Below, piece by piece: positions 50,406 to 63,713 of a stretch of DNA of 64,000 bases. Each line of letters begins with the position of its first letter. Positions within the stretch are counted from its first letter, which is position 1. A program made the translations under genes and the position numbers. The stretch is from Oceanicaulis sp. (lineage in GTDB: Bacteria > Pseudomonadota > Alphaproteobacteria > Caulobacterales > Maricaulaceae): positions 133,476 to 197,475 of the forward strand of contig JBNPED010000019.1 of assembly GCA_051117435.1 (NCBI GenBank), given 5' to 3'. The notes under the pieces were generated by a model. The model was not told the DNA's origin. It saw nothing but the letters and a program-made list of their open reading frames with translations, and searched no databases.

Positions 50406-51251
50406 ATGAGCCGCGCCGCATCCGAGCGCGAGAGCCCGCACGTGCGGGCCGGAGCTTGCGCGGAAGCCTGCGCCGGCCGTCCGGCGCGCCTGGCCGCGCT
50501 GAAGGCGAAGATCGCCGCGCTGGAGGCGGACGGCGGCCGCTTCGTGCAGCCCGGGCGGCCCCGGCTGACCGCGCCGCGCCGGGCCGATCCCGCGGCGAAC
50601 GATTCCGATCCGCTGAGCGAGTTCCGGGCGCAGGCGGGTCTGCACGATCTGCGGCCGGAGACCTATCTGGACGCGCCGGCCGCCTACGCCTTCGCGGTGC
50701 GCTGGCTGGCGGGCCTGCCTCGCGACCGGCTCCTGGTCTGGGTGCGTGCGGCCGGGGAGGCCCGGCTCGATTTCGGCGCGCCCAGCCCCGACGGGCTGAA
50801 CCAGGCCGGGATCGATCCGGCCCGGCTGATGCGGGTGGACGCCAGGCCCGGCGCGGACGCGCTGTGGGCCATGGAGGAGGCGCTGAAATGCGGCGCCCTG
50901 GTGTTCGGCGAGGCCGGCGCGGCGAAGGGCTACGACCTCACCGCCTCGCGCCGGCTGCACGGCGCGGCGAAGGCGAACGGCGGCCAGATCCTGGTCGCCC
51001 GCGCCCATGACGCGGACGGGACGAGCGCCGCGCTCACCCGCTGGCGGATCGCCGCCGCGCCCGGCGCGCCCGCGCCCTGGCGCGGCGCGGGCGGGCTTTG
51101 GGGACTTGGAAGTCTGAAACTCACCGCCGTTCTGGAGCGCCGCCGCGGCGGCGCGCCGGACCGGTTCGAACTGGAATGGACAGAGGATGCGCTACGCCGC
51201 CTTGAGCCTGCCGCGCTGGCCGACCGAGCGCCTCAAGCCGCGACCGGCTGA
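50406..51251 (+). CDS. imuA: Mutasome protein ImuA
   Basis: GLHDL, LWAMEEALKCGAL, LTASRRL..AA, W.I.AAP; first gene of the cassette. Confidence 0.88.
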   Translation: MSRAASERESPHVRAGACAEACAGRPARLAALKAKIAALEADGGRFVQPGRPRLTAPRRADPAANDSDPLSEFRAQAGLHDLRPETYLDAPAAYAFAVRWLAGLPRDRLLVWVRAAGEARLDFGAPSPDGLNQAGIDPARLMRVDARPGADALWAMEEALKCGALVFGEAGAAKGYDLTASRRLHGAAKANGGQILVARAHDADGTSAALTRWRIAAAPGAPAPWRGAGGLWGLGSLKLTAVLERRRGGAPDRFELEWTEDALRRLEPAALADRAPQAATG

Positions 51252-52737
51252 CAGACCGGAAGACAGCCCGGAAGACAGCGAGAACGCGCCGTTCGTCCTG
51301 ACGCTCGCCGGGGCCGGAGGCGAACGGCTGCACGCGCTCACCCCCAACGCCGAGGCCGCGGGGCTCAAACCTGCGATGACCGTCGCCGACGCCCGCGCCC
51401 TGGCGCCGCGGCTTGTCGCCAAGGCCGCCGATCCGGACGGCGACCGGGCGGCGCTGGTGCGCTTCGCACGCTGGTGCGGACGGTTTTCCCCGTGGACGGC
51501 CGCGGATCCGCAAAACCCCGGCCTGGACGGGGTGCTGCTGGACATCACCGGGTGCGCGCAGGTGTTCGGCGGCGAGGACCGGCTTCTCGACCGGCTGGTG
51601 GAGGAGACGCGCGCCCTGGGCCTCACCGCTGCGGCGGCCGCGGCGCCCACGATCGGTCTCGCCTGGGCGCTGGCGCGCACCAAAGCCCCGCGCGCCGCGC
51701 GCGGCTGGATGAGCGTGGACACGGTCCGGCCCGCCCTCGACACGGTTCCGGTGGAGGCGTTGCGCCTGGGCGATGCGGCCGCGAAGCTGCGCCGTTTCGG
51801 CCTGAACACCGCAGGTGATCTTCTGGGCCTGCCGCGCGGCTCGCTCGCCAAACGGTTCGGGCTGGAGCTGGTGCGCCGGCTCGATCAGGCCGCGGGCGCG
51901 GAACGCGAGACCCTCACCCCGCTCAAACCCCAGGCCGATCTGCGCGCGCGTGTGCGCTTTGCAGAGCCCTTGCAGACCCAAGACGGGATCAAGGAGGCGG
52001 CCGGGCGCGCCATCGAAAAGCTCTGCGAGGCCCTGAAGACCGAAGGGCTCGGCGCCACGCGCCTGCGCCTCACGCTCTACCGGGTGGACGGCCAGGCGCG
52101 CGATCTGATCGTCGGCGCCGCCGCGCCGAGCCGGGATGCGGCCCATCTCGCCCGGCTCATGGGCGAGCGGCTGGAGCGTTCCGGGATCGATATCGGCTTC
52201 GGGATCGATCTGGTGGAGGCCGGCGCCGCACTCGCCCGGCGTTTCGATCATGCCCAGACCGATCTGACCGGCGAGGCGGACACCAGCTCCGACGCCGCGC
52301 GGCTGGCCGACCGGATCAACGCCCGGCTAGGCGAGGACGCCGCCCGCCGCCCGCGGCCGGGAAACAGCCATGTCCCCGAACGCGCCGCGCGCTGGACCGA
52401 CGCCGGGGCGTCGCCCCAGGCCTGGCCGGCGCGGCTGGAGCGCCGGCCCTTGCTGATCTTCGACCGGCCCGAGCCCGCCGAGGCGGTGGCGGAAATCCCC
52501 GACGGCCCGCCGCGGCGCTTCACCTGGCGCCGGGTCCGCCACACGGTTTCAAGAGCCGAAGGCCCCGAACGCATCGCGCCGGAATGGTGGCGTTCAGCGC
52601 CCGGCTCCGGCGCCGGCAAGGTGCGCGATTATTTCCGCGTCGAAACCGGCGAGGGCCGCCGCTTCTGGCTCTATCGCGAGGGCTTGTACGGGCGGGAAAC
52701 CGACCACCCCGCCTGGTTCGTGCACGGGGCCGGGTGA
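51187..52737 (+). CDS. imuB: Y-family polymerase-like ImuB
   Basis: R...L.LPRWPTERL, FSPW.A, LDITGCA..FGGE, GPERIAPEWW, RDYFRVE, C-terminal W.VHG. Confidence 0.95.
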   Translation: MRYAALSLPRWPTERLKPRPADRPEDSPEDSENAPFVLTLAGAGGERLHALTPNAEAAGLKPAMTVADARALAPRLVAKAADPDGDRAALVRFARWCGRFSPWTAADPQNPGLDGVLLDITGCAQVFGGEDRLLDRLVEETRALGLTAAAAAAPTIGLAWALARTKAPRAARGWMSVDTVRPALDTVPVEALRLGDAAAKLRRFGLNTAGDLLGLPRGSLAKRFGLELVRRLDQAAGAERETLTPLKPQADLRARVRFAEPLQTQDGIKEAAGRAIEKLCEALKTEGLGATRLRLTLYRVDGQARDLIVGAAAPSRDAAHLARLMGERLERSGIDIGFGIDLVEAGAALARRFDHAQTDLTGEADTSSDAARLADRINARLGEDAARRPRPGNSHVPERAARWTDAGASPQAWPARLERRPLLIFDRPEPAEAVAEIPDGPPRRFTWRRVRHTVSRAEGPERIAPEWWRSAPGSGAGKVRDYFRVETGEGRRFWLYREGLYGRETDHPAWFVHGAG

Positions 52738-52763
52738 TGGGCGGCGAGGGCGCCCGCGCGATG

Positions 52764-52881
52764 TCCTCCCCCGCCTGCGGGGGAGGTGTCCGCGCAGCGG
52801 ACGGAGGGGGCTGCGTTGGCGTTCACCGCCGCGCCGCCCCCCTCGGCCCTTCGGGCCACTCCCCCCGTAAACGGGGGGAGA
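52764..52881. repeat. Bipartite REP-like palindromic element (copy C) between imuB and dnaE2
   Basis: Left arm 52764-52810 is nearly the reverse complement of 42964-43011; right arm 52837-52881 matches 42860-42914. Confidence 0.88.
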
Positions 52882-52912
52882 CACCTCGCCGCGCCGCCAC
52901 GGCCCCCCGCCC

Positions 52913-55900
52913 ATGACCCGTTTCGCCGAACTTTGCGCCGCCACGAACTTCTCCTTCCTGCGCGGGGCCAGCCACCCCCATGAGATGGTGGAAACCGCCG
53001 CCGCGCTGGGGATCGAGGCGCTGGCGGTGGCCGACCGCAACACGCTGGCGGGCGTGGTGCGCGCCCATCTCGTGGCGAAGGAGCACGGGATGAAGCTGCT
53101 CGTGGGCGCCCGGCTGGCGACGGCGGAGGGAGTGGACTGCGTGTGCCTGCCGAAGACCCGCACCGCCTATGGCCGGCTCTCGCGCTTTCTCACCGACGCG
53201 CAATTCGCCGGCGAGCCGGGCGAGCCGGACGTGCGCCTGTCGGCGGCGGGCGAGCAATTGGGCGAAGACCAGGTGCTGATCCTCATTCCGCCGCCGGAGG
53301 AGGACACGGACTGGGCGACGCAGGCCGAGCGCTTTGTCCGGGCCAGCGAAAGTCCGGTGCATCTGGCGCTCGTACGCCGCTTCGACGGGCGCGACGGGGC
53401 GCGGCTCCTGCGCCAGACCCGGCTCGCCCAGCGGCTGGACGTGGAGACCGTGGCGACCACCGATGCGCTCTATCACATCCCCGAACGCCGGCTTTTGCAG
53501 GACGTGGTCACCTGCATCCGCGAGCATGTGCGCATCGACGAGGCCGGCCGCATGCTGGAGGCGAACGCCGAGCGGCATCTGAAACCCGCGCGCGAGATGC
53601 GCCGCCTGTTCGCCGGTTATGAAGACGCGGTCGCACGAAGTGTGGCGCTCGCCGGAGAGATCGATTTCAAGCTCACCGAGCTGGTCTATGAATACCCCGA
53701 CGAGGTGATCGGGGCGGGCGAAACACCCATGCAGACCCTGCGCCGCCTCACGAGGGAGGGCGAGGCGCGCCGCTGGCCGGACGGGACGCCGGAAAAGACC
53801 CGCCAGGCCATCGATTACGAGCTGGGGCTGATCGAGCAGCTCGATTACGCGAGCTATTTCCTCACCGTGTACGATCTTGTCCGCTTCGCGCGCTCGCAAG
53901 GAATCCTCTGCCAGGGCCGGGGGTCTGCGGCCAATTCGGCGGTGTGTTTCGCCATCGGGGTCACGGAGGTGGACCCGTCCAAGATCGATCTCCTGTTCGA
54001 ACGCTTCGTCTCCGCCGAACGCGGCGAGCCGCCCGATATCGACGTGGATTTCGAGCACGAGCGCCGCGAGGAGGTGATCCAGTACGTCTATGAGAAGTAC
54101 GGGCGCCGGCGCGCAGGGATGACCGCGGTGGTCAATTGCTACCGCCCGCGCGGCGCGATCCGCGAGGCGGGCAAGGCGTTTGGGTTATCCGGCGACGTCA
54201 TCGCGGCGCTGTCGAAAGCCGTCTGGGGCTGGCGCGAGGGGATCACCGACGAGGTGATTCGCGGCGAGCTGGGGCTGGACCCCGACAGCCCGGCCCTGCG
54301 CCGGGCGCTGGGGGCGGCGCGCGCGCTGCAGGGGTTTCCCCGTCACCTGTCCCAGCATCCCGGCGGGTTCGTCATCACGCTGGGCCGGCTCGACGAGATC
54401 GTGCCGGTGCGCCGCGCCGCCATGCCCGAACGCACCGCGATCGAATGGGACAAGGAGGATATCGAGGCGCTGGGCCTGATGAAGGTGGACGTCTTGGGCC
54501 TTGGGATGCTCACCGCGGTGAGCAAGAGCTTCGACATCATCGCCGAGGCCTATGGCCGCGAGCTCGCAATGGCCGATCTGCCGGCCGAGGACCCCCGCGT
54601 CTACGACATGATCTGCAAGGCCGATACGCTGGGGGTCTTCCAGATCGAGAGCCGGGCGCAGATGACCATGCTGCCGCGCCTGAAGCCGCGCACCTTCTAT
54701 GATCTCGTCATCGAGGTGGCGATCGTGCGTCCCGGCCCCATCCAGGGCGACATGGTCCACCCCTATCTGCGCCGCCGCGAGGGCAAGGAAAAGGTCGAGT
54801 TTCCTTCAAAGGCGCTCGAAGACGTGCTGGGCAAGACTCTCGGCGTGCCGCTGTTTCAGGAGCAGGCGATGAAGATCGCCATCGTCGCGGCCGGCTTCAG
54901 TCCGAGCGAGGCCGACCGCTTGCGCCGCTCCATGGCCGCCTTCCGGCGCTCCGGCACGATCCAGGAGATGGGCGAAAAGCTGATCTCCGGCATGATCGCC
55001 AACGGGTATGAGCGCGACTTCGCCGAGCGCTGCTTCAAACAGCTGGAAGGCTTCGGCGAGTACGGCTTTCCCGAAAGCCATGCGGCGAGTTTTGCGCTGA
55101 TCGTCTATGTCTCCTGCTGGATCAAGCGGCATTATCCCGACGCCTTCCTCGCCGCCATGCTGAACAGCCAGCCGCTGGGCTTCTACGCCCCGGCCCAGCT
55201 GGTGCGCGACGCGCGCGAGCACGGCGTCGTGGTGCGCCCGCCGGACGTGAATTATTCCGACTGGGACTGCACGATGGAGCGCCTTGAGCCGTTTGACGGT
55301 CCGCCCGCCACGCCCGAAGGCGGCGCGCGCCGGGCGGTACGCCTGGGCCTCAGGCAGATCAAGGGCTTGAGCGAAATCACCGCCGCCCGCGTCATGGCCG
55401 CCCGCGCCGAAGGCGGGCTGTTCGACAGCGTGGAGGACCTGGCGCGCCGCGCCCGGCTTCAGCGCTCGGAAACCGACCGGCTGGCGGCCGGCGACGCCTT
55501 CGGCTCGCTGGTCTCCCGGCGCGAGGCGGGCTGGCGGGCGCTGGCCCAGGCCGGCCCGGACCTGCCGCTGTTTCAGGCCGGCGGCGAGCGCCATGCGCCC
55601 GACCTTTCCGGCGCGCGCCTGCCGGTGATGAGCCTGTCTGAAGAGGTGGCGCGGGACTACTCCACCCTGGCTCTGTCGCTAAAGGCCCATCCGCTGAGCT
55701 TTCTGCGCGCGGCGATTTCGGAGGCGGGCTACCGCACCTGCGCCGAGCTTCTGACGGCCCGAAACGGCGCGCGCGTGGGCGTCGCCGGCCTGGTGCTGGT
55801 GCGCCAGCGGCCGGGTTCGGCCAAGGGCGTGATCTTCGCCACGCTGGAGGACGAGACGGGGATCGCCAACGTCATCATCTGGCCGGCCATGTTCGCGCGC

Positions 55901-56167
55901 TTCCGCCGCACCGTGATCGGGGCCAAGCTGCTGGCCGTCACCGGCAAGCTGCAGCGCGAGGGCGATGTGATCCATCTGGTGGCCGATCAGCTGGTGGACT
56001 GGACCGGCGCGCTCGCCAGCTTGGGCGAAGGCGGGCTCGCCAACGCCTTCGCCCACGCGGACGAAATCGAGCGCCCGGGCATGGACCCGCGCGAAAAACC
56101 CAAGCGCGGTCAGGGCTTCGCCACGCCGGGCGCGGAGATCATCCCGGCGAGCCGGGACTTTCATTAA
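52913..56167 (+). CDS. dnaE2: Error-prone DNA polymerase DnaE2/ImuC
   Basis: NFSFLRGASHP, GRGSAANS, PPDIDVDFE, C-terminal SRDFH. Confidence 0.97.
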   Translation: MTRFAELCAATNFSFLRGASHPHEMVETAAALGIEALAVADRNTLAGVVRAHLVAKEHGMKLLVGARLATAEGVDCVCLPKTRTAYGRLSRFLTDAQFAGEPGEPDVRLSAAGEQLGEDQVLILIPPPEEDTDWATQAERFVRASESPVHLALVRRFDGRDGARLLRQTRLAQRLDVETVATTDALYHIPERRLLQDVVTCIREHVRIDEAGRMLEANAERHLKPAREMRRLFAGYEDAVARSVALAGEIDFKLTELVYEYPDEVIGAGETPMQTLRRLTREGEARRWPDGTPEKTRQAIDYELGLIEQLDYASYFLTVYDLVRFARSQGILCQGRGSAANSAVCFAIGVTEVDPSKIDLLFERFVSAERGEPPDIDVDFEHERREEVIQYVYEKYGRRRAGMTAVVNCYRPRGAIREAGKAFGLSGDVIAALSKAVWGWREGITDEVIRGELGLDPDSPALRRALGAARALQGFPRHLSQHPGGFVITLGRLDEIVPVRRAAMPERTAIEWDKEDIEALGLMKVDVLGLGMLTAVSKSFDIIAEAYGRELAMADLPAEDPRVYDMICKADTLGVFQIESRAQMTMLPRLKPRTFYDLVIEVAIVRPGPIQGDMVHPYLRRREGKEKVEFPSKALEDVLGKTLGVPLFQEQAMKIAIVAAGFSPSEADRLRRSMAAFRRSGTIQEMGEKLISGMIANGYERDFAERCFKQLEGFGEYGFPESHAASFALIVYVSCWIKRHYPDAFLAAMLNSQPLGFYAPAQLVRDAREHGVVVRPPDVNYSDWDCTMERLEPFDGPPATPEGGARRAVRLGLRQIKGLSEITAARVMAARAEGGLFDSVEDLARRARLQRSETDRLAAGDAFGSLVSRREAGWRALAQAGPDLPLFQAGGERHAPDLSGARLPVMSLSEEVARDYSTLALSLKAHPLSFLRAAISEAGYRTCAELLTARNGARVGVAGLVLVRQRPGSAKGVIFATLEDETGIANVIIWPAMFARFRRTVIGAKLLAVTGKLQREGDVIHLVADQLVDWTGALASLGEGGLANAFAHADEIERPGMDPREKPKRGQGFATPGAEIIPASRDFH

Positions 56168-56209
56168 AGCCCGAGCGCGGGAAAGGGGCTTGATCCTCAC
56201 CCGAAAACC

Positions 56210-56225
56210 AAATGATATATCATTT
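56210..56225. promoter_or_regulatory. Perfect 16-bp palindromic operator (copy 1)
   Basis: AAATGATATATCATTT, 43 nt upstream of ATG 56269, downstream of TTGATC (56190). Confidence 0.75.
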
Positions 56226-56268
56226 AGGACAAGCGGCGACCCAACGCCGCCCCAAGGAGGAGAGAGCC

Positions 56269-57159
56269 ATGAAAACCCTGATCGCCGCGCTGGGCGCGGC
56301 CAGCTTCACAGTTTCGGCGGCCGCCGCCCAGGAGCGTCTCAGCTTCGACGACCCGGCCGACGTGCTGGAGATGAACCGCAAGATCGGTTGCTCCACGGTC
56401 GACGGGGAGCCGGTGACGTTCTACTGGCACGGCTACGCCTTCTCCCGGCGCATGGGCGAGGCCGACCGGCGCCTGTTCCGCGTGGAAGGCATGAACGTGC
56501 GCGCCTGCGGCACGGTCGAACATCCTGAATACGGGACCGGCTATCGCCTGGTGAGCCGGGAGCTCCTGCTCTATCTCGACCCGGAGACCGGCGAGATCCT
56601 CTCCACCTGGGACAATCCCTGGACCGGCGAGACCGTCGACGTGCTCCATGTGGCCAACGATCCGGTCAATATGCGCGCGCCCAACTATGTGAACGGTCCG
56701 CGCGGGCCGGCCACCTTCCGCGGCTCCATCCAGGGCGACGATTTCTGGCAGACCGCCACCGTCCCGCTCTGGTATCCCAACCCGCTCGCTAGCGAGTTCG
56801 AGGCCGAGATCGGCGGCACCTATCACGCCACCGAGATGTTCAACTTCTTCGGCAATGTGTCGAACCTCACCGATCCGAACGAGACCACCGCCGATGTGGA
56901 GGTGGGCTGGGTGCGCATGTCCGACTGGCTGCCCTGGATGAAGATGAACGGGCGCGACGGCGTGATCTATTTCCACACCGCCGGCACCAAGCTGGACAGC
57001 TGGGACGAACTGCCCGACTTCTTCAAGGAGGAGATCGCGCGCCATTATCCCGAATACACCGCGCCGCCCCCGCTGGACGATGATCGCGAGAACGTCACCA
57101 GCTGGATCTATTACCGCGACGTGGCGCGGGGCGAGATCGAGGCGCCGGACCGCAACTAG
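56269..57159 (+). CDS. Secreted DUF1838-like protein
   Basis: AAGGAGG SD, signal peptide; W.G..FS......LF..EGMN, SREL..YLDP.TGEIL..W.NPWTGE.V.V.HVANDPVN, RMS.WLPWM.M. Confidence 0.75.
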   Translation: MKTLIAALGAASFTVSAAAAQERLSFDDPADVLEMNRKIGCSTVDGEPVTFYWHGYAFSRRMGEADRRLFRVEGMNVRACGTVEHPEYGTGYRLVSRELLLYLDPETGEILSTWDNPWTGETVDVLHVANDPVNMRAPNYVNGPRGPATFRGSIQGDDFWQTATVPLWYPNPLASEFEAEIGGTYHATEMFNFFGNVSNLTDPNETTADVEVGWVRMSDWLPWMKMNGRDGVIYFHTAGTKLDSWDELPDFFKEEIARHYPEYTAPPPLDDDRENVTSWIYYRDVARGEIEAPDRN

Positions 57160-57174
57160 CGCTCTGCAGGATCG

Positions 57175-57203
57175 ACGGGCCGCCGCGCAGGCGGCCCGTT
57201 TGT
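57175..57203 (+). terminator. Terminator-like hairpin after the DUF1838-like gene
   Basis: ACGGGCCGCC-gcgca-GGCGGCCCGT followed by TTGT. Confidence 0.55.
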
Positions 57204-57271
57204 CACGTAAATGCAACAGTGCGGCGCTCATGCGTCCTCGCCCCCTAGACGAGGCAGGGCGGGGCGGCGCC

Positions 57272-57287
57272 AAATGATATACCATTA
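57272..57287. promoter_or_regulatory. Palindromic operator (copy 2)
   Basis: AAATGATATACCATTA, 14/16 identical to copy 1, upstream of the TonB-dependent receptor. Confidence 0.75.
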
Positions 57288-57375
57288 AATCAAATCCGCC
57301 GCAGAAGGCCGGACCAACGGTCGGCGGAGATACGATGCGAGAGCCCGCACACGGGCGCCAAGGGGAGAGTGACAG

Positions 57376-59850
57376 GTGACCAGATTTGCATTGATGACGT
57401 CGGCCGCCGTTCTGGCGCTGACCGGCCTGACCGCGACATCGGCGACGGCGCAGGAGGGCTCCACGCCCGAGCCCGAAGCGGGCGCACAGCGCAGCCAGGA
57501 CGTGATCACGATCACGGCGCGCCGCCGCGAAGAGAGCCTTCTGGACGCGCCGGTGGCGGTAAGCGCGTTCGGAGAGGACGACATCCGCACGCTCGGCATT
57601 GAAAGCGTCGACGACGTGGCGCGCTTCACCCCCGGCTTGAGTTTCTCGGCCGCCTTCGGGCGCACCACCGAACGCCCGGTCGTGCGCGGCCAGTCCAACG
57701 TGCTCGCCGGCGTGCAGTTCGGCGTGGAGTCCGGCACCGCCTATTTCCTCGACGGGATCTACTATTCCGGTCCGATCTCCGCGCTTGACCCCAACGACCT
57801 CGAGCGCGTCGAAGTGATCAAGGGACCCCAGTCGGCGCTCTACGGCCGGAACACCTACGCCGGCGCGATCAACTATGTCACGCGCGGAGCCACGGACGAG
57901 TTCGAGGGCGATCTGCGCCTGCGCGCGGGCAGCCATGGCGAGCGCGAGATCGCCGGGCGCATCTCCGGCCCGCTGGTCGAAGACCGGCTCGGATACTCGA
58001 TCTCCGTGCGCGATTACAATTACGACGGCGAACACACCAATCTGGTCACCGGCGAGAAGGTGGGCCAGGAGACCTCGTTCAACGTCTCCGGCGTGATCGA
58101 GGCGAGCTTCACGCCGAACTGGGACCTGCGCCTGCGCGGGATGTATTTCTCGGACGACGACGGCACGCTGCCGATCTTCCTGCAGCCTTCCGCCGCGAAC
58201 AACTGCTCGCCCGGTTGGGGCTCGCTGTCGCGCTATCCCGCCTCGGGATCGACGAACAACAATCAGTATTTCTGCGGCGTGATCCAGCCGCGTCCGGTCC
58301 AGCTCAACACCGGTCCGGGACAGATCATTCTGGTCGACGGCGTTCCGAACACCGCGACCTTCCCGTTTTTGCCGCCGCCTTATTCGACGGCGGACGCCAC
58401 CGCCTTCGACGGGCTGGAGCGCGACGGGGTCATGGGCTCGGTGCAATCCAGCTGGGATATCGGCGGCTCGGGCTATGTCTTCGACGCCTCCGCGTCCTCC
58501 TGGACCCAGGAGCGCAAGTTCGGCACCGACTCCGACCATTCCAGCGTCAACTTCATCCTCGGCCCTCCCGGAGTCGCGGAGGCCTTCCTCGCCGACACCG
58601 GCCGCAAGGAGCAGAGCGACTACTCCTTGGAGGTGAAGCTCTCCTCTCCCGTGGACCGCGCCTTCCGCTGGGCGATCGGGGCGTTCTACTATGATTTTGA
58701 AGAGACCGGCTTCGATCTCTCCTTCGCCGATATCGAGCGCGGCGCGCTGTCGCTGAACATCGGCACCACCAACCAGGCGGTCTACGGCCTGGCCGAATAC
58801 GACTTCTCTCCCAACCTCACAGCCACGGTCGAGGCGCGCTGGGCCGAGGAAGAGAAGACGCGGACCGAAATCAGCACCGCGACCGGCGCGGTCACCCTGG
58901 AGCAGGAGGGCGCCTACGACAGCTTCACGCCGCGCTTCACGCTCGACTGGCAGACCGAGATGGGCCTGTTCTATGCGGTCTACGCCCAGGGCGTGAAGCC
59001 CGGCGGGCTCAACGGCTCGTCAGGCGCCACGGTCGGCCAGGAGGTCTTCGACCAGGAAGAGTCCGACAATTACGAGCTGGGCTACAAGAACACCCTGCTC
59101 GGCGGCGATGCGGTGCTCACCGCGGCCGGCTACTTCATCGAAGCCAGCGACGTGCAGGTGACCCGGGCGGTCGCCGCGCTCGCGGGCGGCTCGGGCACCT
59201 CGATCGCGGTCAATCAGGGCGCGGCCGAAATCTGGGGCGTGGAGCTTGCCTGGAACCACGCGCCGGCGGACTTCTTCACCTACGGGCTCACCTATGCGTG
59301 GACCTCGCCTGAGTTCACCGAGGGCTGCGACGACTTCCAGTGGACGCTGACCTCGGGCGGCGGCGTGATCGATCCCGGCTCCTCGGCGCCGGGCACCGGA
59401 ACCGAGTTCTTCGGCCAGACCGGAAACTGCGACATTTCCGGCAATCAGCTGCCGCTGACTTCGGAACACCAGTTCTCCGCGTTCGGCGAGTTCCGCGCTC
59501 CGCTCGGCGGAGGCTGGGAATGGTTCGCCCAGTCCGACGTCACCTATGAGTCCTCCAAATTCGTCCAGGTCCACAATCTGGCCGAAACCGGCGAAACCAC
59601 GCTGATCGGCGCGCGCCTGGGCGTGGAGACCGACACCATGACCTTCCAGGTCTGGGGCCGGAATATCGGCGACGAGGATTCCATCATCATGGCCACGCGG
59701 TGGGGCCAGACGCCCTATCATTTCGGCGGCGCGTTCAGCCCGGACATCGCCCCTGCGGGCGCGGCGGGCGGCTTCTTCCCGACCCGGGCCTTCTTCGGCA
59801 ATCTGCGCCGGGGGCCGGCCTACGGCGTCGAGGCGCGGCTGCGCTTCTAA
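57376..59850 (+). CDS. TonB-dependent receptor
   Basis: Signal peptide, TonB box DVITITARRREE, plug motif ERVEVIKGPQSALYGRN..AGAIN, C-terminal YGVEARLRF. Confidence 0.97.
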   Translation: MTRFALMTSAAVLALTGLTATSATAQEGSTPEPEAGAQRSQDVITITARRREESLLDAPVAVSAFGEDDIRTLGIESVDDVARFTPGLSFSAAFGRTTERPVVRGQSNVLAGVQFGVESGTAYFLDGIYYSGPISALDPNDLERVEVIKGPQSALYGRNTYAGAINYVTRGATDEFEGDLRLRAGSHGEREIAGRISGPLVEDRLGYSISVRDYNYDGEHTNLVTGEKVGQETSFNVSGVIEASFTPNWDLRLRGMYFSDDDGTLPIFLQPSAANNCSPGWGSLSRYPASGSTNNNQYFCGVIQPRPVQLNTGPGQIILVDGVPNTATFPFLPPPYSTADATAFDGLERDGVMGSVQSSWDIGGSGYVFDASASSWTQERKFGTDSDHSSVNFILGPPGVAEAFLADTGRKEQSDYSLEVKLSSPVDRAFRWAIGAFYYDFEETGFDLSFADIERGALSLNIGTTNQAVYGLAEYDFSPNLTATVEARWAEEEKTRTEISTATGAVTLEQEGAYDSFTPRFTLDWQTEMGLFYAVYAQGVKPGGLNGSSGATVGQEVFDQEESDNYELGYKNTLLGGDAVLTAAGYFIEASDVQVTRAVAALAGGSGTSIAVNQGAAEIWGVELAWNHAPADFFTYGLTYAWTSPEFTEGCDDFQWTLTSGGGVIDPGSSAPGTGTEFFGQTGNCDISGNQLPLTSEHQFSAFGEFRAPLGGGWEWFAQSDVTYESSKFVQVHNLAETGETTLIGARLGVETDTMTFQVWGRNIGDEDSIIMATRWGQTPYHFGGAFSPDIAPAGAAGGFFPTRAFFGNLRRGPAYGVEARLRF

Positions 59851-59934: not shown

Positions 59935-60963
59935 ATGCTTCGCGCTTTCATCACCGGCGCCGCCTTGGCGCTGACCGGTTTCGCGCCGGTCTCCGCCCAG
60001 GCGCCGCAAGGCGTGCAGGACGCCGACTTCGCCGAATTCCTGTCCTGGTTCGAGGGCCGGTTCGATAATGATCATCAGGTCTTCTTCGCCGAGGCGCTCG
60101 GCGTGCCGGAGGATGCGCGCCATGAACGCATCCATTCGATCTTCCGGCCGGTGGACCCGCCGCAGATCGGCGCGCACGTATTTTATGTGGAGCAATACTC
60201 GAACGCCGATCCGGCCGACCTCTACCGCCAAAGGCTCTACGTCTTCGAGCCGGTCTACGAGACCGGCGAGATCCGCCTCGACATTCTGGCGCCGCGCGAC
60301 CCCGGCGCGCTCGCCGGCGCCCATCTCGACCCGTCCAGGCTTGAAGGCCTCACGCGGGAGGATTTCGTCGCCTATCCCCAATGCGCGGTCTATTGGCGCC
60401 GTCAGGAGAACCAGTTCGTCGGCGAGACCCGGCGGGGCGAGTGCCGGATCGAAAGCACGCGCTCGGGCCGCACGCTGGTGATCGAGGATGATCTCGTGCT
60501 CACCCCGGACGCGATCTGGATTCTCGACCGCGCGGAGACGGAAGAGGGCGAATACGTCTACGGCAACCGCGCCGGCGTTCCCCACAAGCTGCGCCGGGCG
60601 CGGCCGTTCCAGTGCTGGGTGGCGGTGCTGCGCGGCGCCGAACACGGCGACAGCGGCGAGGGCGTGCCCCCTTCGGCCTGGGATTTCCGCCAGGACGTCT
60701 TCATCCATGACCAGGGCGGGCGCGCTCAGATCGTCACCGATGAGGAGACCCCGCGGACCGTCGAGCTGCGCCTGCGCGACGTGGTCTGGCCGGACGCCTC
60801 GCGCCGGCCCTCGCTGACGCTCTACGTGCACGAAAACGGCTCGGACCGCGCCACCAGCTACGCCTGGACCGAAGGCGGCGCCGAGCGGGTCGGACTGAAC
60901 CTGCGCTGGCTGCAGGCGAGCTGCACCCATGCGCCGGGGGTGTGGGGGCCGGCGGGGGAGTAG
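59935..60963 (+). CDS. CpcT/CpeT (T-type bilin lyase)-like secreted protein with extra C-terminal domain
   Basis: Signal peptide; WFEGRFDN..Q, HERIH, YVEQY, LYRQRLY, C.V.W, F.G.....EC, ILDRA, VYG. Confidence 0.78.
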   Translation: MLRAFITGAALALTGFAPVSAQAPQGVQDADFAEFLSWFEGRFDNDHQVFFAEALGVPEDARHERIHSIFRPVDPPQIGAHVFYVEQYSNADPADLYRQRLYVFEPVYETGEIRLDILAPRDPGALAGAHLDPSRLEGLTREDFVAYPQCAVYWRRQENQFVGETRRGECRIESTRSGRTLVIEDDLVLTPDAIWILDRAETEEGEYVYGNRAGVPHKLRRARPFQCWVAVLRGAEHGDSGEGVPPSAWDFRQDVFIHDQGGRAQIVTDEETPRTVELRLRDVVWPDASRRPSLTLYVHENGSDRATSYAWTEGGAERVGLNLRWLQASCTHAPGVWGPAGE

Positions 60964-61013
60964 TCGGCTTGACCTTCCCTTCATGTCCTTAGGTGATCGC
61001 GTTCGCCGGTCAG

Positions 61014-61173
61014 GCCTCCCCGTCGTTCCATGCTGGAGGACACCGCAAGGCGATCGCAGGCTGTCAAGGACGGGCCTTCGGCCCGCCGCGCCGCGGCGAC
61101 CGGGCGAACGCCCGGTCGTCCTTGACAGCCTGCGACACTTGCGAAAATGGCTCGGCATGGATCGACGGAGAGG
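61014..61173. repeat. Nested inverted-repeat (cruciform) intergenic element
   Basis: Perfect 19-bp IR 61054-61072/61117-61135 enclosing internal hairpins; imperfect outer IR 61015-61038/61151-61173. Confidence 0.8.
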
Positions 61174-61394
61174 TAGGGAGACGCCGTCACCTTGGCCGAG
61201 CGAACACCCCGAGGCTGTGTGAGCGCTCACTCACGTCAGCGGCGTTTCAACACGCCTCCCGCGCACGAAATCGCTTTCAGCATGACAGGGCTCTCAAGCC
61301 CAGGGTTCTATCGCGGTCGGTGGAAAGCCTCCCCCCTTGCACCCCCGGCGCCGCCCGTCTAGCTCACGGGACCGACGCGCAACGGAGCCCGCCC

Positions 61395-62270
61395 ATGACC
61401 GACGACATCGAAATCGACGACAGCCCGCTCACCGACCGCGAGGATCCCAAAGGCCGCGTGCTCATCGTCGCCGGTTCCGACAGCTCGGGCGGGGCGGGAA
61501 TCCAGGCCGACATCAAGACGGTCACCGCGCTTGGCGGCTATGCGGCCACCGCGATCAGCGCCGTGACCGTGCAGTCGACCGAGGGCGTACGCGCCGTCCA
61601 CCCGATCCCGCAGGACATCCTCGCCGGACAGATCGAGGCCGTGCTCACCGATATCGGCGCGGACGTCATCAAGACCGGCATGCTGGGCTCGGCCGAGACC
61701 GTGGACACGGTGCTCCAGGCCCTGGACGCGCATGCCGATCCGGCGATTCCCCTGATCATCGATCCGGTCATGGTCGCGGCCTCCGGCGACCGCCTGGTGG
61801 ACGACACCGCGCTTGAAGCCATTCGCGACCGGCTGGCCCCTCGCGCCTATCTGCTCACCCCCAACATGCCCGAAGCCGCCGCCCTGACCGGTGTCGAGGT
61901 GGAGGACATGGACGGCCAGCGCGAAGCGGCCGAAATCCTGCTCAAGTGCGGGGCCAAGGCGGTGCTGGTGAAGGGCGGCCATGTGGAGAGCGGCGACGTG
62001 ATCGACTTGCTGGCCACCCGCAACGGCGTGCGCCTGTTCACCCGCCCGCGCATCAAGACCCGCCACACCCACGGCACGGGCTGCACGCTGGCGAGCGCGA
62101 TCGCCGCGCTGGTCGCCCAGGGTCTCAGCCTCGACCGCGCGGTGGAGCAGGGCGGCGACTATCTCCATGAGGCGATCAAACGCGCGCCCGGCTTCGGCAA
62201 GGGCGCCGGGCCGGTCCATCACGGCTGGACGATGTCGGGCGGCTTCGGCCACGCGCCGGTGCGCGAGTAG
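61395..62270 (+). CDS. thiD: Hydroxymethylpyrimidine/phosphomethylpyrimidine kinase
   Basis: AGSDSSGGAGIQADIKT, KTGML, DPVM, TPN.PEA, KGGH, HTHGTGCTL.SAI. Confidence 0.95.
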   Translation: MTDDIEIDDSPLTDREDPKGRVLIVAGSDSSGGAGIQADIKTVTALGGYAATAISAVTVQSTEGVRAVHPIPQDILAGQIEAVLTDIGADVIKTGMLGSAETVDTVLQALDAHADPAIPLIIDPVMVAASGDRLVDDTALEAIRDRLAPRAYLLTPNMPEAAALTGVEVEDMDGQREAAEILLKCGAKAVLVKGGHVESGDVIDLLATRNGVRLFTRPRIKTRHTHGTGCTLASAIAALVAQGLSLDRAVEQGGDYLHEAIKRAPGFGKGAGPVHHGWTMSGGFGHAPVRE

Positions 62271-62273
62271 GCC

Positions 62274-63713
62274 CTACTCCGCCGCCATCATCGCCGGGGC
62301 GAGGGCCGCGAGGAGCGGGCCCCATTTGTCGTCGGCGTCCGAAACGCGGCCGTCATAGAGGATGCGGTCCTCATAGCCGGTGATCCAGAGCGCGTCGGGA
62401 TTTCTGCGCGCGATGACGATATCGCTCTGGCGGTCCGAATGGGGCGTGCGGTGCAGGCGGAAGACGACGATCCCGTCCGCCATCGCCTCGCCCAGCGGGC
62501 CGGGCAGGTGGGCGAGGCGGTCGTCGCCCTCGATGACGGAGACCAGCTCCATCTTGCCGGCTTCGGTGGAGAGCGCGAAGCGCGAGCGCTCGATGCCGGA
62601 GAGGCCATGCTGGCTTTCGGCGTGGAGCTTCCAGGCGGTCTCCACCGGCACGGCGAAGGCGCGGTGGCCCTCGATCTCCCGGCACTGGAAGAAATAGTGA
62701 TTGTTCACGCCCATGCGCTTCAATTCCTGCTGCATCAGGCGCAGCGTATCGGCGTCGTCATTGACCGAATCGATGATCGGCGTCTGGTTCTCCAGCGTCA
62801 CGAAGGGGCGCGAGCGCAGCTGTCTTGCGGCGTTTTCCACCAGCGGATTGCGCAGAACGCGGCCCTGCTCGTCGCGCACATACTCGCCCGCCTCGTTGAG
62901 GCGCAGGAACTCGTCCGGGTGGGTGAAGTGGACCATGAAGGCGAGCAGGACCTGCGGGTGCAGCTCGTGGAACAGGTCCAGCATCTCGAAGAAATTCGCG
63001 TCGAACCGCTCGGGGAAGAAGGCCATCTCCTTGGTCCCGATGCGGATCACCTCCAGCCCGGCCTCGGCCAGACCGTTCAGGTAGTCGAACAGATTGCGGT
63101 TCGACAGGACCATGGGATCGCCGCCCGACAGAAGCGCCTCGCGAATCTTCGGCTTGTCGGTGATCTCGCCGGACGCGACCTTGGCGTTGTGGGAGGTCAC
63201 GTACGCCTTGATCTCATGGATCGAGGCGGTGTCCTTCTCCGTCTTGCCGGTGAGGAAGTCGGAGCGGTAGCAGTACCGGCACCAGCTCGAGCACGCGCGC
63301 ACCACGTAGAGAAGGATCAGCTCGTACTTGTGCAAGAGGCCCGGCGTCGGGGAGTATTTCAACTGATTGGACGGATCGGCCTCGCCGCTGAGGTCGTCCA
63401 TCTCCTCCGGGCGCGCCTTGATGAGGTTCTTCACCGCTTCGGAGCGGCGCGCCAGATCGAGATAATATCCCGTGGCGCGCGGCGGCAGGCGATCGGACAC
63501 GCCGGCGGCTTCGAGCTCGTCGAGCTCGGCCTGGGAGTACACTTCCGCGCCGCCGTTTTCGACATAGTCGCGATAGCGCGCGATGTCGTGGATGACATAG
63601 CGCTGGAACTTCGTCTCTTCGATGCGCGCGTAGAGATTGTCCTTGTGACGGCGGGAGACCGCCTTCTTCTTCGGACGCGAACCGGCGATGCGGATTTTTC
63701 CGTCAAGCGGCAT
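62274..63713 (-). CDS. KamA-family radical SAM aminomutase-like protein
   Basis: HKYE, CSSWCRYCYR (CxxxCxxC), LLSGGDPM, IRIGTK, HFTHPDE, NQTP, VNDD, YFFQ, STEAGK. Confidence 0.88.
   Translation of the reverse strand: MPLDGKIRIAGSRPKKKAVSRRHKDNLYARIEETKFQRYVIHDIARYRDYVENGGAEVYSQAELDELEAAGVSDRLPPRATGYYLDLARRSEAVKNLIKARPEEMDDLSGEADPSNQLKYSPTPGLLHKYELILLYVVRACSSWCRYCYRSDFLTGKTEKDTASIHEIKAYVTSHNAKVASGEITDKPKIREALLSGGDPMVLSNRNLFDYLNGLAEAGLEVIRIGTKEMAFFPERFDANFFEMLDLFHELHPQVLLAFMVHFTHPDEFLRLNEAGEYVRDEQGRVLRNPLVENAARQLRSRPFVTLENQTPIIDSVNDDADTLRLMQQELKRMGVNNHYFFQCREIEGHRAFAVPVETAWKLHAESQHGLSGIERSRFALSTEAGKMELVSVIEGDDRLAHLPGPLGEAMADGIVVFRLHRTPHSDRQSDIVIARRNPDALWITGYEDRILYDGRVSDADDKWGPLLAALAPAMMAAE

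Follow-up and report, generated by a model that had tools for sequence, protein, structure and literature searches.

A conserved 16-bp palindrome connects dispersed uptake and catabolic genes of Oceanicaulis sp. into a regulon with a HutC-type GntR protein as candidate repressor

We analysed a stretch of 64,000 nucleotides (nt) from Oceanicaulis sp. (contig C26:133476-197475, GenBank JBNPED010000019.1; hereafter the window), in which a 16 base pair (bp) palindrome occurs twice, once ahead of a gene for a secreted DUF1838 protein and once ahead of a TonB-dependent receptor gene. The sequence data indicate with good confidence that these two sites and their counterparts elsewhere are the operators of one regulon. 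The same 16-bp word ties together about 40 genes on seven contigs of the host genome (3.35 Mb, 68% G+C, labelled G000 among the compared genomes). The factor of these palindromes is rather probably a protein that we call regulator A (C22:267148-267966), which has 272 amino acids (aa), combines a GntR winged helix-turn-helix with a UTRA domain, belongs to the HutC subfamily and would act as a repressor.

Operator 1 is the perfect palindrome AAATGATATATCATTT (56210..56225, no strand assigned) and has the top position weight matrix score in the genome. Operator 2 is AAATGATATACCATTA (57272..57287, no strand assigned) and is not fully symmetric: compared with operator 1, it has the two changes T11C and T16A. 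Both were confirmed at the coordinates that a preliminary description of this DNA had given for them. That description saw no further copy in the window, and a search of the window for the degenerate word AATGRTATAYCATT with up to two mismatches indeed returned operators 1 and 2 as the only matches; about nine more sites lie elsewhere in the genome. Two such matches were obtained in 0 of 100 dinucleotide-preserving shuffles (shuffle mean 0.05). The CC that had been noted before each site is present 5' of both operators in the host genome but is not kept in relatives, and is therefore considered to be outside the binding site.

The sites of the regulon were collected over the whole genome by a mismatch scan followed by a palindromic weight matrix. 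Nine sites scored at least 27 bits, all of them intergenic, and two weaker conserved sites, likewise intergenic, were added, which gives about 11 sites. The real word had seven genomic matches at up to one mismatch and the reversed control pattern had none, so that the earlier proposal of a regulon defined by the shared motif, to be found by scanning the genome, was borne out. In the window, operator 1 serves the DUF1838 protein and operator 2 an operon of the receptor and a CpcT-like protein. The site on contig C15 precedes a second TonB-dependent receptor, and that on C19 a DUF1838-like protein divergent from a sodium:solute symporter. Sites on C2 and C22 precede two paralogous polytopic membrane proteins with no Pfam family, the C22 copy being followed by a FAD-linked oxidase and an aldehyde dehydrogenase. 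Several single sites stand between divergent genes: an enoyl-coenzyme A (CoA) hydratase and a 148-aa protein (C26:3312); a HapK-like/SDR/deacetylase-like/CpcT-like operon and a methyltransferase (C13); a VOC-family protein with an oxidoreductase and a 251-aa secreted protein (C2:90708); and a glutaryl-CoA-dehydrogenase-like gene and a LeuC-like hydratase (C22:274880). A weaker site (C2:87617) lies between a DctP-like protein, judged as such by eye, and an amine oxidase.

Comparison with relatives showed that the motif is conserved upstream of orthologs; the absence of such conservation had been named beforehand as a result that would speak against a regulon. It is present in 4 to 8 copies in 14 of the 25 Oceanicaulis genomes (host included) and absent from nine, and the remaining two have no match above chance: both matches of G007 have a broken TATA core, and G006 has only a match of the reversed control word. 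Paired sites about 1050-1090 bp apart recur across genomes and correspond to the two flanks of the DUF1838 gene. Operator 1 is kept as AAATGATATAYCATTT upstream of the DUF1838 orthologs of 10 Oceanicaulis and two Henriciella genomes. In alignments of both intergenic regions from 10 genomes, the operator forms an invariant island, AATG.TATA.CA.T, amid variable spacer, and within it only the symmetric purine/pyrimidine (R/Y) positions and the outer bases vary. The two Henriciella genomes, which belong to another family, carry 9-12 sites inside one island of about 55 kb, and nearly every site-linked gene of the Oceanicaulis host, where these genes are spread over seven contigs, has an ortholog in this island.

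Regulator A is one of only three GntR-family genes in the host genome, here named A, B and C. It matches PF00392 (E = 2e-18, residues 24-87) and the UTRA family PF07702 (E = 2e-31, residues 110-248), and its best matches of solved structure in PDB are NagR/YvoA (E = 1.5e-25) and DasR (E = 3.7e-20). It scores below all named NCBIfam equivalog cut-offs, for example HutC (112 bits versus 220) and PhnF (107 versus 157). The distribution of A follows that of the motif: within the genus, A occurs in 13 of 14 motif-bearing genomes versus 0 of 11 motif-less ones (Fisher p = 2.7e-6), and among 201 genomes of the order it occurs in 14 of 15 motif-rich genomes, defined by five or more motif matches, versus 26 of 186 others (p = 2.4e-10). 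In the one motif-rich genome of these 15 that has no A, the matches are scattered and chance-like. The preliminary description had called for a GntR-type repressor encoded elsewhere, and the best candidate is a GntR protein outside the window, on contig C22, but of the HutC and not the FadR or ExuR/UxuR subfamily.

The position of the sites also points to A. Half-sites were counted around the A homologs of 80 loci, which come from Maricaulaceae, Hyphomonadaceae, Parvularcula, Sneathiellales and Rhodospirillaceae. Their density is 2.75 per kb up to 300 bp from the homolog versus 0.10 per kb beyond, an enrichment of about 27-fold, and a nearby half-site was found in 54 of the 80. The site lies 41-68 nt 3' of the stop codon of the A homolog in 27 loci and 134-161 nt 5' of its start codon in eight. 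After the stop codon of A in 14 further Oceanicaulis-type loci we found a 24-bp composite operator, e.g. AAAAGATATATAACTATACCATTT, in which the spacing between two good half-sites is 8 bp wider than in the 16-bp operator; the variant AAAAGATATATAAGTATATCATTT is present in the host genome (C22:268007-268030) and in the closest locus, L031, and the composite sites of loci L031-L045 lie about 50-85 nt after the regulator gene. A homologs of just 35-39% identity have TAATGATATAACTATAGATCATTT ahead of their own genes. The composite layout was likewise seen upstream of the own genes of distant A homologs. In Azospirillum sp. RU38E (L047 and L048), a different palindrome, TTGACAATCAnnTGATTGTCAA, of the TGACAATCA type, stands upstream of A homologs of about 56% identity, which suggests a shifted specificity in this branch.

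In architecture, A equals NagR/YvoA of Bacillus subtilis and DasR of Streptomyces, which also join a GntR winged helix-turn-helix to a UTRA domain. Both repress uptake and catabolic genes as dimers; the palindromes that they bind have TGGT...ACCA arms, and a metabolite of the pathway releases them. The core of their operator is TGGTCTAGACCA, and the A-type core, TGGTATACCA, is two bases shorter. The regulon of A differs from theirs in having no amino-sugar genes.

At the DUF1838 promoter, the arrangement of the site is consistent with repression. Operator 1 lies 43 nt past the stop codon of a dnaE2-type polymerase gene and 43 nt ahead of the ATG of the DUF1838 gene. A hexamer TTGATC (56190..56195, + strand) stands out by its conservation and is the putative -35 element; the string CTTGATC is found at a fixed distance of 14 nt upstream of operator 1 in 10 of 10 aligned Oceanicaulis genomes, the neighbouring DNA being variable. 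Positions 4-9 of operator 1, TGATAT (56213-56218), lie 17 nt 3' of TTGATC, which is the position expected for a -10 element, and the whole resembles the alphaproteobacterial promoter pattern CTTGAC-N17-CTATAT. A sigma-70 consensus scan of 56050-57450 called no promoter, so the basis of the proposed promoter is the conservation of TTGATC at a fixed spacing and not a consensus match. These data support an overlap of operator 1 with the likely -10 region of the DUF1838 promoter. Similar spacings, TTGCCT-N13, were observed 5' of both C2 sites.

Several observations weigh against A as the repressor of these sites. The overlap with a -10 element, which had been named beforehand as a point to check, is supported for the DUF1838 promoter but could not be extended to the receptor gene: operator 2 lies 88 nt 5' of its GTG start, no convincing -35 or -10 element could be placed there, and the consensus scan called none, which leaves repression by occlusion unsupported at this promoter. 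Among the operator variants, the G form TGGTATACCA has GT..AC half-sites, and the A-rich variant TGATATATCA lacks this signature, which is usual in GntR operators. Much of the co-localisation signal comes from the site after the stop codon of A, which belongs to the promoter of the next gene and is not proof of autoregulation. In the 26 A-positive genomes of the order outside the motif-rich group, matches of the strict pattern are few; a variant site, or a paralog of different specificity, may be in use there. Finally, G020, a genome of the same genus and the single exception among its motif-bearing members, has eight well-kept sites and no A gene in its assembly. Two contigs of this assembly, C7 (end, 98684) and C17 (end, 229021), both stop within the same stretch of about 150 bp of a gcdH-like acyl-CoA dehydrogenase gene, which in the host genome lies about 5.6 kb from A. 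This shared contig end indicates that a duplicated gcdH-like gene probably broke the G020 assembly beside the expected A locus, and the absence of A may therefore be an assembly gap.

The case of G020 also supports a different, non-GntR factor encoded outside the island, with A merely a co-inherited member of the regulon, a reading that we consider unlikely. A correlation with the motif would be expected for every gene of a co-inherited island, and the small open reading frames (ORFs) of the island were checked in part only, by eye. What speaks against such a factor, besides the contig breaks at the expected position of A in G020, is that the sites precede the own genes of A homologs in distant lineages whose island is otherwise different, and that no regulator other than A and B was seen in the Henriciella island (Pfam on 20 proteins, the rest by eye). 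Regulator B itself is present in G020 (95% identical) and directly adjoins the DUF1838 operator in G015 and G010. As the factor of the AT-rich palindrome it is nevertheless very unlikely: it is found in six congeners that have no motif, its own operon promoter carries a different palindrome, TTGTCCGGACAT, and the divergon of B lacks the AT-rich site. Regulator B was thus rejected on its phyletic pattern and its own distinct palindrome.

The preliminary description had likened the dyad to ExuR/UxuR-type operators, and this likeness is real. The E. coli UxuR site is AAATTGGTATACCAATTT (PMC8092373), a near-identical AT-flanked palindrome to the genomic copy AAATGGTATACCATTT, and the core GGTATACC is the same in both; the arms are each one base shorter here, giving 16 bp in place of the 18 bp of the enterobacterial operator. 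The binding of the sites by a FadR-subfamily regulator of the ExuR/UxuR type is hardly credible, however. The only such gene in the genome, regulator C (C9:31415-32098; FadR-like, FadR/FCD type judged by eye), has no operator site nearby and no homolog at E <= 1e-30 in 40 relatives, 15 of which bear the motif (G020, G030 and G038 included), and it therefore cannot serve a motif common to those 15. This phyletic pattern led us to reject C. Candidate A carries UTRA and not FCD, and the regulon has no hexuronate genes. A Fur/Zur-type metal-regulator box could be considered because the AT-rich palindrome lies 5' of two TonB-dependent receptors, and the operator looks like Fur boxes of the AATGATAAT type. 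We give almost no weight to this possibility: most of the regulon is made up of catabolic enzymes (CoA transferases, dehydrogenases, amidase, hydratases), with no recognisable metal-homeostasis genes besides the receptors, and the motif is patchy within the genus, as described above, while Fur and Zur are, to our knowledge, near-universal. The Fur/Zur box was dropped on these two grounds, regulon content and distribution. That the sites are a promoter element or a dispersed repeat, and not a protein operator, is extremely improbable as well. Operator 1 contains TATA and overlaps the likely -10, as such an element would, but the symmetry is perfect and two-fold, the R/Y positions co-vary symmetrically, one copy is enough for a pair of divergent genes, in both orientations, and the flanks have nothing in common.

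With A as the favoured factor, the following mechanism is proposed. One dimeric protein, most likely A, would control about 11 operators and at least 15 transcription units. Free of ligand, A would bind AAATGRTATAYCATTT and cover the -10 region of the DUF1838 promoter, and, as operator 1 overlaps this region, bound A would exclude RNA polymerase. A substrate or intermediate of the pathway would then release A by binding to its UTRA domain. This would induce the receptors of the outer membrane, DUF1838 and the CpcT-like proteins of the periplasm and the transporters of the inner membrane, together with the upper catabolic enzymes. The HutC-type regulators NagR and DasR, the closest relatives of A with solved structures, are ligand-released repressors; by analogy, A most likely represses its targets until a metabolite of the pathway relieves the repression. 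In a second tier, regulator B, also of the HutC type, would control a downstream module through its own palindrome, TTGTCCGGACAW.

Regulator B (C19:37203-37907) was assigned as GntR plus UTRA by Pfam on its 42%-identical Henriciella ortholog, and the host protein itself matches a HutC-type NCBIfam profile. Its palindrome TTGTCCGGACAW, also read as TGTCCGGACA, marks further promoters outside the window, with host sites at C13:26444, C19:39289, C8:118162, C8:119299, C16:29133, C22:263719, C26:48102 and C26:209723. The form TTGTCCGGACAT is conserved at the promoter of the operon of B in 17 of 24 B-bearing genomes (18 with the G010 variant), other families included. Both this operon and the lyase/hydratase/dehydrogenase/CoA-transferase operon carry the B-type and not the A-type palindrome, in the host as well as in both Henriciella genomes; the linked module comprises a citramalyl-CoA-lyase-like enzyme, a MaoC hydratase, an acyl-CoA dehydrogenase and CoA transferases. 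This distribution suggests two tiers, with A at uptake and the upper steps and B at the C5-dicarboxylate end. In five Oceanicaulis-type loci, the word ATAGTCCGGACAT, similar to TTGTCCGGACAW, was found upstream of A, a hint of a cascade from B to A.

The first regulated unit in the window is the DUF1838 gene (56269..57159, + strand; PF08894, E = 6e-73), which encodes a 296-aa protein whose translated N-terminus is signal-peptide-like. This unit ends in the terminator-like hairpin that had been noticed between the two units (57174..57200, + strand), in which 57174-57184 pairs with 57190-57200 to form an 11-bp G+C-rich stem with a 5-nt loop (-31.6 kcal/mol, z = -4.1 versus shuffles). Its position is kept in 10 congeners with differing stem sequences, and it was missed by a simple terminator scan because its T tail (GTTTGT) is weak. 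Right after the hairpin and about 50 nt ahead of operator 2 lies the box TTTGTCACnnAAATGCAACA (57199..57221, + strand), which is near-invariant in 10 Oceanicaulis genomes in an otherwise variable spacer. As a promoter it was discarded, since by eye it fits neither sigma-70 nor sigma-54 (GG-N10-GC) spacing, and an Rfam scan of 56100-57450, box included, gave nothing at gathering score. The box may be a site for a further factor. The second unit starts with the receptor gene (57376..59850, + strand; 824 aa, Pfam Plug and TonB_dep_Rec_b-barrel), which scores under every NCBIfam equivalog cut-off. The gene of a secreted CpeT/CpcT-like (DUF1001) protein (59935..60963, + strand; PF06206, E = 3e-30) is probably co-transcribed with it, given the same strand and a gap of 84 nt.

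Upstream of operator 1, and ending 43 nt before it, is a mutagenesis cassette of imuA-like, imuB (IMS plus DUF6504) and dnaE2 genes (50406-56167), which appears unrelated to the regulon. The CpcT-like gene is followed on the same strand by a gene of a ThiD-like phosphomethylpyrimidine kinase (60993-62270); its Pfam domain begins at residue 163 of 425, and about 160 N-terminal residues have no family match. A 479-aa ORF on the opposite strand (62274-63713, - strand) has high third-position G+C and no Pfam match.

The pathway genes were grouped by family-level annotation of the Henriciella island and the host orthologs. One group would act in uptake, with TonB-dependent receptors, an SSF symporter, a DctP-like protein (by eye) and periplasmic DUF1838 and CpcT-like proteins. 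Another is nitrogen-releasing, with an amidase, two CN-hydrolases, a deacetylase-like protein and an amine oxidase, and a third contains a PaaK-like ligase and a methyltransferase. The fourth matches the itaconate/methylsuccinate cluster of Pseudomonas and Cupriavidus, which consists of Ict, Ich, Ccl, methylsuccinyl-CoA dehydrogenase and an MmgE/PrpD isomerase (PMC12290011). The same enzyme families, compared at family level only, are found in the regulon together with its B-controlled partner module: family III CoA transferases, a MaoC-type hydratase, an HpcH/CitE-like lyase, an acyl-CoA dehydrogenase and MmgE/PrpD. Unlike that cluster, the set described here is much larger and includes TonB receptors, DUF1838 and CpcT-like proteins, amidase and CN-hydrolases, with a deacetylase-like protein, a methyltransferase and an amine oxidase as further additions, and its regulators are of the HutC type. 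As to the substrate, the gene mix is compatible with several routes for nitrogen compounds, including a nitrogen heterocycle opened to branched dicarboxylates.

These data taken jointly allow a tentative reading, for which we see a modest chance, as a two-tier pathway ordered from A to B. A nitrogen-containing compound would enter marine Maricaulaceae and Hyphomonadaceae by way of TonB receptors, with the help of periplasmic DUF1838 and CpcT-like proteins, the latter of bilin-lyase fold. Amidases, CN-hydrolases and the deacetylase-like enzyme would open it, and the branched C5-dicarboxylates so formed would be burned in an itaconate/methylsuccinate-like CoA module. Pigment breakdown could be the source of such a compound, as a pyrrole- or imide-type product. 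Our literature search returned nothing on A or the motif, with the operator words appearing in no relevant context, and for DUF1838 it returned passing mentions only, in two papers on Streptomyces gene clusters. The pathway delimited by the operator is probably undescribed so far.

As an object, a HutC-family repressor with its regulon is an ordinary GntR-family operator system, and the value of this operator is as a map, which provides a testable gene list and a candidate ligand-sensing regulator. For many of the mapped genes no function is assigned, including DUF1838, the CpcT-like proteins outside cyanobacteria, the two polytopic membrane families and the 148-aa and 251-aa proteins. If the two-tier pathway is true, it would give the first functional context for DUF1838, the CpcT-like proteins and the two unassigned membrane-protein families. 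The gene list and the regulator together offer a route to a marine compound that would be imported through TonB-dependent receptors.

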